DNA from: Thermosulfurimonas dismutans
GTDB taxonomy: Bacteria; Desulfobacterota; Thermodesulfobacteria; Thermodesulfobacteriales; Thermodesulfobacteriaceae
Length of the DNA: 32,000 nucleotides
Reading direction: 5' to 3'
Assembly: GCF_001652585.1 (NCBI RefSeq)
Contig: NZ_LWLG01000001.1
Span: forward strand, 360,001 to 392,000
In this document: in pieces, positions 2,490 to 18,518 of the stretch
How positions within the stretch are numbered: position 1 is the stretch's first letter
Layout: each line of letters begins with the position of its first letter
Notes under the pieces: model-generated
Database searches by the model: none
What the model was told of the DNA's origin: nothing
What the model saw: the letters and a program-made list of their open reading frames with translations, nothing else
Program-made: the position numbers and the translations under genes

Positions 2490-3667
2490 AGCGGGCCTAT
2501 CTTCAGGCTGTGGGTGGGGTTTCTGGAGACATGTTCCTTTCGGCCTTGATCTCGGCTGGGGTACCAGCTGAAGAACTTGCAGGATTTCTGGCCAGGCTTC
2601 CGGGGAAGCTGCGTTTAGAGGTAAAGGAGATCACAGTTTCCGGTCTCAAGGCCATAAGGATCAATCTTTCTGCTGAAAGCCCCGGGGCCCTTCCGTCCAG
2701 GTTCCCGGATTTTATGGCTATGCTGGAGAAGCTGGACCTTGAACCTTCGCTAAGAGAAAAGGCCCGGGAGATCTTTGCACTTATTTTTCAAGCCGAGGCC
2801 CGGGTGCACGGTCGGGAACTTTCTGAGGTTAATCTCCATGAGCTTTCGGCCTACGATACGCTGGGGGATGTCCTGGGCGTGCTTTACGGGCTTAACTTTC
2901 TTGGAATCTCTGAACTTTATGTCTCTTCTCTTCCTCTAGGGGCGGGCCTGATCGAGACCGCCCACGGGCGGCTTCCCCTTCCGGCCCCGGCGGCAGCCGA
3001 GATCCTTAAAGGAGTCCCGGTCTATGGCATTTCGGAGTCCTTTGAGACTGTGACCCCCACCGGGGCAGCCCTGGTAAAGGGTCTGGCGAAGGATTTCGGT
3101 CCTTTTCCGGAAATGACAATTGAGGCCGTGGGAGTGGGTACTGGGACCTTTTCGTTTGAGGCTCGGCCCAACCTTTTGCGTCTATTCGTTGGCGAGCCCG
3201 TGGAGAAACTTCCCAAAGAAGAGGTGTGGGAGATTATTACCGATCTTGACGACGAGTCACCGGAAACTCTGGGATATTTAATGGAAAGGCTTCTTTCGGC
3301 TGGAGCTCTTGATGTGGGGTTTAGTCCGCGTTTTATGAAGAAAAATCGTCCAGGGCTAAAAGTAGAGGTGATTTCGTCTCCGGATAAAGTGCGAGAACTC
3401 GCCCTCATCCTACTTGAGGAGACCTCTACCTTAGGAGTGAGAATCCGCAGGGCCGAGAGATTATGCCTTCCCCGTGAGATAAGAACGATAGAGACCCCTT
3501 ACGGCCAGGTCAGGGTCAAGATTGCCCGTACCCCTTCGGGAGAGACCAAGTTCAAACCAGAGGCCGAGGACCTTATCAAGTTCTCCCGCGAAAGCAGGCG
3601 CCCTCTGAGAGAGGTGAGACAAGCGGTCTTAAACGAGATTAGATTTAAGTTTAGGGACTCAGCCTGA
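2486..3667 (+). CDS. larC: LarC-family nickel insertion protein (nickel-pincer cofactor biosynthesis, DUF111/UPF0272)
   Basis: The N-terminus MKRAYLQAVGGVSGDMFLSALISAGV matches the LarC GxSGDM signature, and the length of about 390 aa fits. Its ATG overlaps the upstream stop (ATGA). Confidence 0.8.
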   Translation: MKRAYLQAVGGVSGDMFLSALISAGVPAEELAGFLARLPGKLRLEVKEITVSGLKAIRINLSAESPGALPSRFPDFMAMLEKLDLEPSLREKAREIFALIFQAEARVHGRELSEVNLHELSAYDTLGDVLGVLYGLNFLGISELYVSSLPLGAGLIETAHGRLPLPAPAAAEILKGVPVYGISESFETVTPTGAALVKGLAKDFGPFPEMTIEAVGVGTGTFSFEARPNLLRLFVGEPVEKLPKEEVWEIITDLDDESPETLGYLMERLLSAGALDVGFSPRFMKKNRPGLKVEVISSPDKVRELALILLEETSTLGVRIRRAERLCLPREIRTIETPYGQVRVKIARTPSGETKFKPEAEDLIKFSRESRRPLREVRQAVLNEIRFKFRDSA

Positions 3668-14135: not shown

Positions 14136-14212
14136 CGGGACGTAGCGCAGCCTGGCAGCGCACCCGCTTGGGGTGTGGGGGGTCGCCGGTTCAAATCCGG
14201 CCGTCCCGACCA
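14136..14212 (+). tRNA. tRNA-Pro (anticodon GGG), CCA encoded
   Basis: A hand-folded 77-nt cloverleaf: 7-bp acceptor CGGGACG/CGUCCCG, D arm GCGC-AGCCUGGCA-GCGC, anticodon arm CCCGC-UUGGGGU-GUGGG with G37, T arm GCCGG-UUCAAAU-CCGGC, and discriminator A plus CCA. Confidence 0.95.
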
Positions 14213-14266
14213 TTTTGTTTTTTTAAATCTTTTAAAACCAGGCCCTGGCCTGGGGGGAGGTGCGTC

Positions 14267-14698
14267 ATGAGGGAGATGACCCCTGTGTGCCAGATTGACA
14301 GACTGGATGTTTTTCCCGCCCAGGGGGGCAGGCAAGAAAGTATTCCGGTAACGACTCATCTTTTGGTTGAGATGTGGGAGGCACCTTTTAACGTCTTAGC
14401 CCGGGTCAAGGAGGTAGAAAAGGCCCTTCGATATTCCGGCAATGGCCATGGCGAAAGTGGTGAGGTTATTTCCTATCAGTTTGAGCCTTACGGGGTTTCG
14501 GCCAAGGCTACCTTTGAGGAAGTTCATATTTTCATTCATACCTGGCCGGAAAACGGATACGCTGCGGTGGACATCTTTGCTTCTTCAAAAGAGGGGGCCT
14601 ACGAGATCCTAGAACGCATGAAAGAGGCCTTTCGGCCTCGGTATATGCATGTCGTAGAGGTCAAAAGAGGCAATCTCGTTTCCGAGGGGGAAACTTGA
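14267..14698 (+). CDS. S-adenosylmethionine decarboxylase (SpeH/SpeD class 1)-like protein, apparently lacking the processing Ser and catalytic Cys
   Basis: FEPYGVSAKATFEEVHIFIHTWPENGYAAVDIFASS aligns by eye with the AdoMetDC core (..P.GVSGVV.I.ESH..IHTWPE.GYAA.D.FTCG). I chose the ATG at 14267 with GGGGGGAGGTG upstream, because the ORF-track start at 14168 lies inside the tRNA. Its stop overlaps the speE start. Confidence 0.7.
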   Translation: MREMTPVCQIDRLDVFPAQGGRQESIPVTTHLLVEMWEAPFNVLARVKEVEKALRYSGNGHGESGEVISYQFEPYGVSAKATFEEVHIFIHTWPENGYAAVDIFASSKEGAYEILERMKEAFRPRYMHVVEVKRGNLVSEGET

Positions 14699-15522
14699 CT
14701 CATTACTGGTGGCGTGAACGCATCGGCCGGGATTACGGTCACGCCTATAGGGTTAGCCTAATCTACGAGGAACGCACCCCGGCCGGCCAACACCTGCAAA
14801 TTTTCAAAAATTCTTTGTGGGGACGTTTTATCGTCCTCGACGGTATCGTTCAGTTTACTGAGCGGGACGAGTTTATTTATCATGAGACTATCGTCTTCAC
14901 TCCGGTGGCTATGCTTTCGTCCCCCCCTGAGGCCGTCCTTATCATCGGTGGGGGGGATGGAGGCGTTTTGCGTGAGGTTCAGAAACTTTCCGGGGTAAAG
15001 AGGATCCTTCAGGCTGAACTCGATCTGTCGGTCTTCGAAGCCTGCCATAAATATATACCCGAAATTTCGGGAGATTATGGTGATCCGCGGCTAGAGTTTA
15101 GAGTGGCGGATGGTTTGTCAGTAGTAAAGGGGTTACCAGAGGCCTCCTTTGAGGTGGCCATCGTGGACTGCACGGATCCGGTAGGTCCGGCCAAAAGTCT
15201 TTATACCGAAGAATTCTATCGAGAACTTTACCGTGTCCTTAAGCCCCAGGGTGTTTTTGTTCAGCAGGCCAGTTTGCCCGGGTTCTTTCCCGAGATTCTA
15301 AAAGAGGCCTATGCCCTTGCTAGCAAAGTTTTTCCTAGGGTGTACGTTCTCCGGGCTCCGGTCCCCTGCTATGGAGACGAGATTGCTTTCCTCTTGGGGG
15401 TAAAATCTCCGGAAATTTCCCCTGAACCCCGACAAACTTTTCGGGGTAGATTTTACAATCCAGAGGTCCATAAGGCCTCTTTTGCCCTACCTGAGTGGTG
15501 GCTCCGAGAGCTTTTATCTTAA
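14695..15522 (+). CDS. speE: Spermidine synthase family polyamine aminopropyltransferase
   Basis: LDGIVQFTERDEFIYHE, IIGGGDGGVLREV, DPRLEFRVADG and VDCTDPVGPAKSLYTEEFY are the canonical SpeE motifs. The TTG start overlaps the upstream stop (TTGA). Confidence 0.9.
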   Translation: MTHYWWRERIGRDYGHAYRVSLIYEERTPAGQHLQIFKNSLWGRFIVLDGIVQFTERDEFIYHETIVFTPVAMLSSPPEAVLIIGGGDGGVLREVQKLSGVKRILQAELDLSVFEACHKYIPEISGDYGDPRLEFRVADGLSVVKGLPEASFEVAIVDCTDPVGPAKSLYTEEFYRELYRVLKPQGVFVQQASLPGFFPEILKEAYALASKVFPRVYVLRAPVPCYGDEIAFLLGVKSPEISPEPRQTFRGRFYNPEVHKASFALPEWWLRELLS

Positions 15523-18518
15523 ATACGGATTTGGATCGAGCTTCCCTCCTTTCCGGGTATGACTTCCAAGATGGCCGGAATGCGATCCCGGAGTTCTCTA
15601 ACATGGGAGATGAGGCCTACCAGACGACCTCCGGCTTTTAGTCTTCCAAGCACGGAAAGGGCTGTTTCCAGGGCTTCGGGATCAAGATTGCCAAAGCCCT
15701 CGTCGATGAAAAGACATTCAAGAGGCCTTCCGCCGGAAAATTCCTGAACCACTTCGGAGACCGAAAGGGCCAGGGCCAAAGCGGCTAAAAACGATTCTCC
15801 ACCCGAAAGGGTGGCCACCGGTCGGGTCTTGCCGTGCCAGGCATCAAAAATCAATAGATCGAGCCCTGCAGCTCGTCGGCGGTCCAACACTTCGGTTTCC
15901 CGCAACAGGGTGTAACGTCCGCCGCTCATACTTCGAAGTTTTTCCGAAGCCCGAAAGAGGATCCTTTCAAGGAGGGCTGAGAGCACAAATCGATGAAAAG
16001 AGAGTCGTTTTTCGTTTTGTCCGGAAAGAAAGGCCGACAGCCTTGCCACCAGACGGTAACGTTTCTCCGTTTCTCGAAGCTCTTCGGCCAGTCTCTCGAT
16101 CTCATTCTTTCTAGCTGCAAGGGTTTCCTTCCTTTCATGAAGGCGGGCCAGTTCCTCCCTCAGAACCTGCTCTTGTTTTCTGAGCTCTTCACACCTGGCT
16201 TTCATTTCATCTACTGCCGGCGGACTTTTCGCCCGAAGTTTGGTCTCTAGTTCTTGGAACTGGTGCTTTAAGATCTGAAATTCTTCTTCGAAGGTTTGTA
16301 CCCGGCGTTGATACTCCGCCTTCTTGCCGTCTTCAAGTCTTGCGGCTAGGAAGGCCTTTCGGTCTTCGAAGCCGGCTTCTCTCAGGGCGATCTCAAATCG
16401 GGCTTCAAGATCCTTCTTTTCTTCTAAAACCTCTTCTTGACGTCGCGCAATCTCCTTGAGCAGTTGACGGAGCCCCTCTTTGCGAGCCGATAGTTCTGAG
16501 AGCCTTTTCTCAAGGCCCCTTAAATGGCTTTCCCAGCGCTCACAGGTGCTCGTCAGTTCTTGGATGTGCCTGAGGATAGTTGGGGAGTCTTGTTTTTCGG
16601 GGACTTCGTTTCTCAAAGTGGCTATTTGGCTCTTGAGGGCTTCCATTCGAAGGGTCAGGTCTTCCTTTTCCCGCTGAAGTTCTTCTTTGCGAGTTTTGAG
16701 GCTGTTGAGTTCGTTTCTTATTTTTTCGGCCCTCTGGGTAAGCTTTCCAAGGGTTTCCGCCTGTCTTCTCTTTTCCTGATAAAGTCTTTCCAGTTCTGCC
16801 TGTTCTCGGGCTAATTTTTCAGGATCTTCCTCACTGGAAATATCTTTGCCAAACCTTTCAAGCTCCTCGAGAAGGGTCCGGGCTCGTTCCTTGAGGCCCT
16901 CCAGTTTGGCTATTCGAGCTTGTAAAGCCTTTTCCTTTTCATTGATTTTGGCCTCCAGACTTTCGGGGTCTTCTGCCATAAGGGCTTCCGGGGGCGAGGC
17001 CGGATAAGGATGCTCTCTTGAGCCGCAGACTGGGCAGGGTACTCCTGGTTCTAGCTTTCGCGCCAGTTCCCAGGCCGTATGCTTCCATCTTAGTTCTTGG
17101 AAAATAGCTAATCTTTGCCTGAGAGCCGAAAGTTCTTTTTTCTGGGCCTGGATTTCTGACAGAAGTCTTTGCCTTTCTACCGATATTCGGGAGAGTTCCG
17201 CTTTTAACCGCTGGCTTTCTCGGAGTTTTTCAAGCATACGTTTCCGGACCTGGAGTCTTTCGAAAATGGAGGAGGCTTCATCGCCGGCTCGAAAAGCCTC
17301 TTCCTGAGCCCTCTGGACTTTCTCGAGTTCTTTTTCTAGGAGATTTTCCTTCTGTAAGAAAGATTCAAGTCTTCTTCTGAGAGTTGAAGAGCGGTCTTCC
17401 AGTTGCTTTAACTCTTTCTGGAGGGTCTCTAGCTTGGCCAAAAGTGGGAGTTTTTCCTTGAGGAGAAGGGCCTCCTTCTTTAGTTTTTCCATTTCCTCTT
17501 TGCGGGCCGATTCTTGCTCATACCGATGGAGGGTCTCGGCCGAAATTCGTTCCAAATCTTGGAGGCTCTTATGGATCTCGGCTTGCCGTTTTTGGTCTTC
17601 GAGTAGCCCCTTTTCGATGCGAATAAGGGCCTCATAGAGAGGAAAGATTTTTTCGGCAGCTTCAGCCTTGAGGAGGCGGCTTTTCAGAGTCTCTACGATC
17701 GGTCTTTGATGTTCGAGTTCATCAAGGCGTTTGCGGGTTTTCTCAAGCTTACGAAACTTTTCGGCCAGCTTCAGGGCCTCCTCAAGTCGGGCTTCTTTCC
17801 TGCGGAGACGCTCCTCGATCTCAGATAGTCTCTCCCTGAAGCGGGCTTCTTTTTCTTTAAGGCGATGTATTTCTTGCAAAAGTTCGGATAACTCCGAAAA
17901 GCCTTCGGCTTTGAGCAGGCTCTCGTAGGCCGCTCTTAGTTCTGAGATCCTTTCTCGGGTGGTCTGCTCGAGCTTTTTGAAATATTCCTCGATTTCAAGG
18001 AAGCGTTCGGTCTGAAAGATGGTCTTGAGGAGGCTTTCTCGTTCTTCGCCTCGGGCTAGGAGTATTTCTCGGAATTTTCCCTGCGGGATTAGGAGTACCC
18101 GGCGGAATTCTTTGGCTGAAAAACCTAGGAGCTCCTTTATTTTGCGGTTGACCTCGGTTATACGGTGGGCTAGCAGGCATTCCTCTTCCCAAAGGGCGGC
18201 CTCTTTGCGAAGGTCATGGCGGGCTTCCGTAAGTACCCTTCGTACCCGATAACGACGGCCTCTAAGGAGGAATTCCAGTTCCGCAAGGGTGGCTATTCTA
18301 TTGGAAGCTTTAAGGTTTCTAAGATCCCGGTCTCGCTTTTCTTCCAGACTGGTTTCACCATAAAGGGCAAAGGTTAAGGCATCAAAAATAGTGCTCTTTC
18401 CGGCTCCGGTGGGCCCGGTTATTAAAAAAAGTCCATGTCTTTCGAAAGAGCTGAAGTCGATTTCAACTGGCTGGAGATAGGGACCAAGGGCCTGGATTTT
18501 GAGCTTTAGCGGTCGCAT
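15519..18518 (-). CDS. sbcC: SbcC/Rad50-family exonuclease ATPase subunit
   Basis: Walker A GPTGAGKST, a coiled coil of about 700 aa, zinc hook GVPCPVCGS, ABC signature LSGGESF, and Walker B/D-loop LFIDEGFGNLD. Confidence 0.93.
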   Translation of the reverse strand: MRPLKLKIQALGPYLQPVEIDFSSFERHGLFLITGPTGAGKSTIFDALTFALYGETSLEEKRDRDLRNLKASNRIATLAELEFLLRGRRYRVRRVLTEARHDLRKEAALWEEECLLAHRITEVNRKIKELLGFSAKEFRRVLLIPQGKFREILLARGEERESLLKTIFQTERFLEIEEYFKKLEQTTRERISELRAAYESLLKAEGFSELSELLQEIHRLKEKEARFRERLSEIEERLRRKEARLEEALKLAEKFRKLEKTRKRLDELEHQRPIVETLKSRLLKAEAAEKIFPLYEALIRIEKGLLEDQKRQAEIHKSLQDLERISAETLHRYEQESARKEEMEKLKKEALLLKEKLPLLAKLETLQKELKQLEDRSSTLRRRLESFLQKENLLEKELEKVQRAQEEAFRAGDEASSIFERLQVRKRMLEKLRESQRLKAELSRISVERQRLLSEIQAQKKELSALRQRLAIFQELRWKHTAWELARKLEPGVPCPVCGSREHPYPASPPEALMAEDPESLEAKINEKEKALQARIAKLEGLKERARTLLEELERFGKDISSEEDPEKLAREQAELERLYQEKRRQAETLGKLTQRAEKIRNELNSLKTRKEELQREKEDLTLRMEALKSQIATLRNEVPEKQDSPTILRHIQELTSTCERWESHLRGLEKRLSELSARKEGLRQLLKEIARRQEEVLEEKKDLEARFEIALREAGFEDRKAFLAARLEDGKKAEYQRRVQTFEEEFQILKHQFQELETKLRAKSPPAVDEMKARCEELRKQEQVLREELARLHERKETLAARKNEIERLAEELRETEKRYRLVARLSAFLSGQNEKRLSFHRFVLSALLERILFRASEKLRSMSGGRYTLLRETEVLDRRRAAGLDLLIFDAWHGKTRPVATLSGGESFLAALALALSVSEVVQEFSGGRPLECLFIDEGFGNLDPEALETALSVLGRLKAGGRLVGLISHVRELRDRIPAILEVIPGKEGSSIQIRI

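Follow-up and report, generated by a model that had tools for sequence, protein, structure and literature searches.

A conserved AdoMetDC homologue without pyruvoyl-precursor serine or catalytic cysteine is encoded upstream of speE in the Thermodesulfobacteriales: a candidate partner subunit for a composite active site

Introduction

Proteins that keep the fold of S-adenosylmethionine decarboxylase (AdoMetDC) without its catalytic apparatus have been described in both eukaryotes and bacteria. The C-terminal half of the human enzyme AMD1 (1msv, 1jl0, 1i7b) is one such module: it has the AdoMetDC half-sandwich fold, with neither cleavage site nor pyruvoyl group, and supplies Phe223, Ser229, His243 and Glu247 to a site that receives the pyruvoyl group and Cys82 from the other half. 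The SpeD1-SpeD2 fusion of Victivallis vadensis (WP_116885763) is an active AdoMetDC that undergoes a single cleavage (Li et al. 2023, PMC10407285); its degraded SpeD2, which is homologous to SpeD but has neither Ser nor Cys, is placed next to an active module, comes from the ornithine decarboxylase (SpeDC) lineage and has no HTWPE motif. The prozyme of trypanosomatids (5tvm, 5tvf; PMC5201418), to which it is restricted, is a dead paralogue co-existing with an active one. It arose by duplication of an already fused class 2 enzyme, remains unprocessed and is needed as heterodimer partner of the active enzyme, whose autoinhibition it relieves allosterically rather than completing its active site. 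In human spermine synthase (3c6k), a non-catalytic AdoMetDC fold forms the N-terminal domain and is tied physically to the aminopropyltransferase. Here we describe a gene of Thermosulfurimonas dismutans that shares features with each of these systems. It lies in a stretch of 32,000 nucleotides (assembly GCF_001652585.1, contig NZ_LWLG01000001.1, positions 360,001 to 392,000), hereafter the window, and we use the working name X for the AdoMetDC homologue encoded at 14267-14698 and SpeDc for the second homologue of the genome.

X differs from the human half in being its own polypeptide, encoded at a different locus, and in its class 1b sequence type, and from the spermine synthase domain, with which it is compared here by fold, in not being fused to the transferase. 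Unlike the degraded SpeD2, it is free-standing, keeps HTWPE, carries a clade-specific N-terminal extension and groups next to canonical SpeDs as a monophyletic clade of its own. In all orthologues X is a stand-alone open reading frame (ORF), and a search for longer relatives gave no close fused one. The initial annotation of the locus, made from the sequence alone, had named the prozyme as precedent and knew of no bacterial equivalent. The parallel is apt insofar as a dead paralogue co-exists with an active one; however, the origin of X, a single class 1b domain, is independent, and the prozyme appears further off than the C-terminal half of eukaryotic AdoMetDC, which seems the closest analogy because X retains exactly the set of residues that natural fusions indicate to act in trans (see below). 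As to bacterial equivalents, fused degraded SpeD domains have been published, whereas our literature searches turned up no description of a dead bacterial SpeD that stands on its own.

Results

X is a homologue of class 1b AdoMetDC. Its product of 143 amino acids matches Pfam PF02675 (AdoMet_dc) with 84.9 bits against a cut-off of 25, X residues 31-135 covering profile positions 1-107 of 107, and the NCBI equivalog model for AdoMetDC, TIGR03330, with 78.4 bits, narrowly above the cut-off of 75.65. The phmmer alignment with the Thermotoga maritima enzyme (1tlu/1tmi/1vr7, 1tmi being the S63A mutant; E 1e-17) is gap-free across the motif region and places Val86 of X at the pyruvoyl precursor Ser63 and Ser106 at Cys83; T. 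maritima numbering is used throughout for Glu11, Phe49, Ser55, Glu62, Ser63, His68, Glu72, Asp79 and Cys83. The AlphaFold2 (AF2) model (mean predicted local distance difference test, pLDDT, 81.5; Foldseek against 1tmi, E 3e-11) has the half-sandwich fold of the T. maritima SpeD type and superposes on 1tlu (VIA) with Z 14.8 and a root-mean-square deviation (rmsd) of 3.1 Å over 110 aligned residues. Family membership and the register read by eye in the initial annotation were thus both right, and the profile alignment that it had proposed finds the Ser and Cys columns truly substituted.

S63, H68 and C83 have been named as essential for processing and catalysis (Li et al., PMC10407285). Where a competent pyruvoyl decarboxylase of the SpeD, SpeDA or SpeDC type has Glu-Ser, Cys83 and His68, X has Glu85-Val86, Ser106 and His91, so that of S63, H68 and C83 only the histidine is kept. 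Judged by these residues, X alone is unable to form the pyruvoyl cofactor and is without a proton donor of the Cys83 type. Retained besides His68 are Glu11, Phe49, Ser55 and Glu72 (Glu35, Phe72, Ser78 and Glu95 of X). Databases annotate X as an active AdoMetDC, and annotation based on TIGR03330 and Pfam over-calls the whole X clade. The features of the locus, all on the forward strand, are as follows.

14267-14698, +: gene X, AdoMetDC homologue without Ser63 and Cys83, 143 amino acids (profile matches, alignment, AF2 model)
14522-14524, +: codon of Val86, at the position of the pyruvoyl-precursor Ser63 (sequence and alignment)
14582-14584, +: codon of Ser106, at the position of Cys83 (sequence and alignment)
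14537-14551, +: H91-T-W-P-E95, equivalent to His68...Glu72, invariant in the clade (alignments)
14480-14500, +: F72-E-P-Y-G-V-S78, equivalent to T. maritima Phe49...Ser55 (alignment)
14267-14353, +: N-terminal extension of X, residues 1-29, clade-specific (alignments)
14690-14698, +: invariant Glu-Thr C-terminal tail of X and TTGA start/stop overlap with speE (sequence, alignment)
14695-15522, +: speE, aminopropyltransferase, 275 amino acids, translationally coupled to X (profile match, overlap)
14252-14262, +: purine-rich Shine-Dalgarno region, GGGGGGAGGTG (read from sequence)
14136-14212, +: tRNA-Pro (GGG), 54 nt 5' of the X start codon (ARAGORN)

The frame runs from an ATG to a TGA codon and is preceded, at 5 nt, by a strong Shine-Dalgarno sequence, GGAGGTG; a longer ORF starting at TTG-14168 is excluded by the tRNA-Pro gene. 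The TGA (14696-14698) overlaps by 4 nt with the TTG start (14695-14697) of speE, whose product matches Spermine_synth with 149 bits and contains the GGGDGG and DCTDP motifs. The ribosome-binding site, the intact frame and the coupling to a speE with canonical motifs are therefore as initially described. The N-terminal extension, with conserved Cys8, Pro17 and Gln19, is present in neither canonical SpeD nor SpeDc, and AF2 confidence is low over it (pLDDT about 60). The clade shows no variation at Phe72, Pro74, Gly76, Val77 and Ser78, but does at the remaining two positions of that motif. The Glu-Thr tail is kept also in genera without the speE overlap.

We sampled the order Thermodesulfobacteriales with 38 genomes from 13 genera and 3 families. 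X was recovered from 35 of these and SpeDc from 36, the gaps falling in incomplete assemblies; both proteins are present in T. dismutans itself, in the 32 sampled relatives from which both were recovered and in 4 further genomes. In all 35 order relatives, speE directly follows X. The overlap is missing in some genera, where the gap is 9-40 nt, and the adjacency is not universal, X being unlinked to speE in two lineages. In one genome from outside the order (L086:2151-2948, minus strand), X is found directly upstream of a gene for an S-adenosylmethionine (SAM) hydroxide adenosyltransferase (PF01887 and PF20257) and not beside speE.

The loss of the two catalytic residues extends over the clade. 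Across 36 X orthologues the Ser63 column holds Ala in 26, Ser in 7 and Val in 3; over the clade as a whole the residue is Ala, Ser, Val, Thr, Ile, Leu or Met, and one sampled orthologue (G025) reads Pro-Glu-Ser-His. The Glu62 column varies freely. At Cys83 the residue is variable (Glu, Gly, Ser, Asp, Thr and others) and never Cys, both in these 36 and in the 57 named X carriers from a scan of GTDB species representatives, a set that overlaps with the 35 sampled genomes; Glu-Ser or Cys83 occurs in 0 of the 57. Named carriers include Thermodesulfobacterium thermophilum, T. hydrogeniphilum, T. hveragerdense, Thermodesulfatator autotrophicus and Caldimicrobium thiodismutans. A word-indexed search gave about 35 protein clusters with the same losses (Thermosulfurimonas, Thermodesulfatator, Thermosulfuriphilus, Dissulfurirhabdus and metagenome-assembled genomes), and canonical ESH...TCG proteins appeared in it only under 45% identity to X.

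Thirty-five columns of the X alignment are invariant, and His7, Glu11, Phe49, Pro51, Gly53, Ser55, His68-Thr-Trp-Pro-Glu72 and Asp79 are identical in all 36 proteins. Values of dN/dS are 0.04-0.16 for X and 0.003-0.025 for SpeDc. In a quick maximum-likelihood tree (133 columns) the X clade is monophyletic (SH-aLRT 100) and stands on a long stem (0.93) beside canonical SpeDs. Because purifying selection and the linkage to speE in 35/35 relatives hold across the order, the data support reading X as a paralogue kept for a non-catalytic, polyamine-related role rather than as a pseudogene. A retained function tied to polyamine synthesis had been suggested at the outset, together with a survey of orthologues for the same substitutions and the same linkage; both are borne out order-wide, and sporadic decay was not seen in relatives.

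The T. dismutans genome (99.96% complete) contains exactly two AdoMet_dc genes, those of X and SpeDc. SpeDc has 152 amino acids, carries AESHISIHTFPE (ESH) and FSC (Cys) and is the only Ser/Cys-bearing homologue of the genome. Its gene is in an operon with an agmatinase gene (TIGR01230, 236.7 bits), the sole arginase-family gene present, and lies directly upstream of agmatinase in 36/36 order relatives. No SpeA, PvlArgDC or OKR_DC_1/AAT-fold arginine or ornithine decarboxylase was found in the genome: searches with PF01536, DUF2617 (PF10936), PF01862, PF01276 and PF02784 returned only LysA and one LysA-like gene. The lack of a class 2 AdoMetDC match (PF01536) is a weak negative, the model having matched nothing in 14 control genomes either. 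With that qualification, a hidden conventional AdoMetDC or arginine decarboxylase was rejected. Some genera of the order have the LysA-like gene; three others lack it yet retain both gene pairs, so that it cannot be a general source of agmatine or putrescine. In T. dismutans it encodes a LysA-/FslC-like pyridoxal phosphate (PLP) decarboxylase and lies on contig 12 (L008:1770-6207), about 6 kb from speDc, together with an ATP-grasp gene and a urea-transporter/M23-peptidase fusion.

As a SpeD homologue beside speB in a genome without speA and speC, SpeDc is likely an arginine decarboxylase, an assignment by gene context whose logic was validated experimentally by Li et al. The search for a second, canonical speH/speD that the initial annotation had envisaged therefore has a double answer: a canonical-looking homologue exists, but it is agmatinase-linked and resembles arginine decarboxylase. 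Since it is also the sole Ser-bearing homologue, no ordinary AdoMetDC would be left in the genome. Sister families of the phylum have the SpeDc-agmatinase pair and a canonical ESH/TCG SpeD directly upstream of speE, which places X in the slot of the true AdoMetDC. Spermine/thermospermine reportedly accumulates in T. thermophilum DSM 1276, which has two functional aminopropyltransferases (PMC11107197); of these gene pairs its genome contains SpeDc-agmatinase and X-speE only. In T. dismutans, a second, stand-alone aminopropyltransferase of 314 amino acids is encoded on contig 4 (L009:4415-5359); by analogy with T. thermophilum it is probably a thermospermine synthase.

The Phe49 column separates the families. 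It holds Phe in 84/85 canonical SpeDs and 36/36 X proteins and mostly Ser in the SpeDc family (57/100), a pattern consistent with X, not SpeDc, carrying the adenine-binding half. SpeDc (L008:11467-11925, minus strand) has an extra C-terminal helix at residues about 133-150. The helix sequence, EFPRSIRAVERFIR.ER, does not vary among X-bearing genomes; it is different in canonical-SpeD genomes, and two X-less genomes share the X-type. This tail was the only part of SpeDc found to co-vary with X, and it was discarded as a signature of pairing on account of the two X-less genomes and of confounding by phylogeny.

The roles of the residues kept by X are suggested by natural two-domain fusions. When the X profile was run against 1.84 billion representatives, the dead clade came first, followed by the C-terminal domains of two-domain SpeD proteins. 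Reciprocal loss is seen in 5 of 7 such fusions (P0249, P0252, P0254, P0261 and P0280); of the other two, P0263 keeps Glu72 and P0328 was left out of the reading. The N-domains of the five keep Glu-Ser and Thr-Cys-Gly and have lost Glu72, once together with His68 (HTWPQ, HAFPL, HTWPN, HTTPS and IRTFPS), while the C-domains have lost Ser63 (or the preceding Glu) and Cys83 and keep HTWPE. The same reciprocal loss, in reversed domain order, occurs in P0241, an 858-aa protein from a JGI metagenome with the tandem architecture [AdoMet_dc-SpeE]-[AdoMet_dc-SpeE]: its first decarboxylase domain has HTWPE without Ser and Cys, and its second has ESH and TCG, with HTWPE become HISSN. Since such losses fit a site in which the pyruvoyl group and Cys come from one subunit and His, Glu, Phe and Ser from its partner, as in the eukaryotic class 2 enzyme, the fusions indicate, at the level of sequence, that the residues kept by X act in trans, and X has exactly the residue pattern of the putative trans donor. 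Structure papers on T. maritima AdoMetDC reportedly describe each active site as built from both chains. Phe49, Ser55, His68 and Glu72 of X we take to be the counterparts of the adenine-stacking Phe223, of Ser229 and His243, and of the ribose-binding Glu247 of the human enzyme. A common origin of X and the dead C-domains was considered and rejected, as the quick tree separates them on long branches.

Structural comparison is less discriminating. The X model superposes on residues 171-290 of human AdoMetDC (Z 8.3-9.1), and a search of PDB sequences with the X profile matched bacterial SpeDs only, with no direct match to the human enzyme. As a discriminator the human half was dropped: the models of X and SpeDc both align to residues 171-291, equally well.

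Discussion

To the observed loss of catalytic residues, conservation, gene linkage and gene inventory we add an interpretation. X probably works only as a partner of the one intact homologue of the genome. We give about even odds (a probability of roughly 0.5) to the proposal that it pairs with SpeDc into one composite AdoMetDC site, in the manner of the eukaryotic enzyme's C-terminal half but unfused. In such a heterodimer X would be a non-catalytic class 1b subunit lending Phe49, Ser55, His68 and Glu72 to its partner's active site, and SpeDc would give the pyruvoyl group and Cys. The X:SpeDc site would decarboxylate SAM for the co-translated SpeE, translational coupling would match X to the transferase, and the SpeDc homodimer would supply agmatine. 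It is tempting to go one step further and, more tentatively, to regard X as a specificity-switching pseudoenzyme: the SpeDc homodimer would be an arginine decarboxylase and SpeDc:X a SAM decarboxylase, X supplying the adenosine-binding and His/Glu half, in the Thermodesulfobacteriales and a few related lineages. One could then envision X as a living, unfused intermediate between the homodimeric AdoMetDC of bacteria and the fused eukaryotic enzyme with its single site.

Several points weigh against a composite X:SpeDc site. SpeDc has a complete motif set of its own and functions without X in sister lineages, and its residues are not cleanly split by the presence of X: the C-terminal tail differs, with two genomes as exceptions. 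The gene coupled to X is speE rather than speDc, whose locus is unlinked to that of X. A 4-residue insertion in SpeDc, as well as its extra C-terminal helix, might alter the dimer face. Both the interaction of X with SpeDc and the arginine decarboxylase assignment are predictions, the latter from gene context only. Furthermore, because the X clade is monophyletic, the co-occurrence counts represent few independent events.

The main rival, which we regard as less likely, sees X as an accessory or regulatory subunit of SpeE, with SpeDc alone performing both decarboxylations. X would then correspond, in free-standing form, to the N-terminal domain of spermine synthase or to the SpeD module of SpeD-SpeE fusions, and its half-site would bind SAM, decarboxylated SAM or methylthioadenosine to stabilise, regulate or feed the aminopropyltransferase. 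The 4-nt overlap and the adjacency to speE in 35/35 relatives do suggest 1:1 co-production, and natural SpeD-SpeE fusions are known (P0262, P0241). The gene next to X in the out-of-order genome, a SAM hydroxide adenosyltransferase, would also fit a SAM-type ligand; yet in two lineages X is not beside speE at all. Against the N-terminal domain of human spermine synthase (3c6k) the X model scores Z 9.8 (rmsd 2.6, 98 aligned), but the SpeDc model scores equally (Z 9.9), and the match may therefore be a property of the fold. Moreover, a SpeE accessory role for X requires a bifunctional SpeDc, whereas none of the SpeD-derived arginine decarboxylases tested had AdoMetDC activity (PMC10407285), and a working composite site accounts better for the exact retention of the catalytic His68.

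It is quite improbable that X is still an enzyme, whether through self-processing of its Ser-bearing members with another proton donor or through a pyruvoyl-free reaction on a SAM-like ligand. Pyruvoyl enzymes generally accept several residues before the Ser, and Ser stands at the site in 7/36 orthologues, including that of T. thermophilum (Gly-Cys-Ser-His) and the one reading Pro-Glu-Ser-His. However, most members, including the window protein, have Ala, Val, Thr, Ile, Leu or Met there, so that the conserved function must be independent of Ser; Cys83 is absent from all members, and without a pyruvoyl group or PLP there is no electron sink for decarboxylation. Residual catalysis by the Val-bearing window protein is unlikely; the few Ser-bearing orthologues may have some. 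That X is a functionless pseudogene in slow decay, as the two lost catalytic residues and the long stem branch might suggest, is an idea with a negligible chance of being right, rejected by the low dN/dS and the order-wide conservation, including a frame intact in every order orthologue examined (35 sampled genomes and further species among the 57 GTDB representatives), the 35 invariant columns and the conserved new N-terminal extension and C-terminal tail.

These findings concern a whole order of thermophilic, largely autotrophic bacteria that is annotated with an ordinary AdoMetDC beside speE, which this protein cannot be. As T. thermophilum, a cultured member of the order, is nonetheless documented to accumulate aminopropyl polyamines, the source of decarboxylated SAM becomes a directly testable question. 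If the heterodimer is real, X would be the first bacterial free-standing pseudoenzyme completing an AdoMetDC-family active site, which it may retarget, and the pair would provide an extant model of the way in which the class 2 enzyme of eukaryotes evolved. Two-domain fusions bear on the same problem. Li et al. 2023 state that archaea yielded no SpeD fusion and that none of the fusions joined two bona fide SpeDs (PMC10407285). In P0249, P0252, P0254, P0261, P0263 and P0280 both SpeD domains are of the HTWPE (non-ornithine decarboxylase) type and reciprocally degenerate; the neighbourhood of P0249 (271 amino acids; L085:5001-5816) is archaeal-looking, and P0263 is labelled 'archaeon' by NCBI. 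The ancestor of eukaryotic AdoMetDC may be better modelled by fusions of this type.

Other diverged paralogues were met in the course of these comparisons. Beside speE in another family of the phylum lies a SpeDc-like paralogue (L094, about 2950-3450, minus strand; L096, about 2916-3450, plus strand) that is a mirror image of X: it keeps Glu-Ser and Cys and has lost His68, Pro71 and Glu72 (ESHISISTNIT), and a canonical SpeD is encoded elsewhere in the same genome. A highly diverged AdoMet_dc paralogue (L091:2971-3375; 38 bits), with the motifs VESG, LHTLSE and YTCS, overlaps the start of a 325-aa gene in a genus where SpeDc is present and X is lacking. In the window itself, the stop of speE overlaps by 4 nt (15519-15522) with that of a convergent sbcC-like gene for 999 amino acids (15519-18518, minus strand), leaving no space for a terminator between the two.

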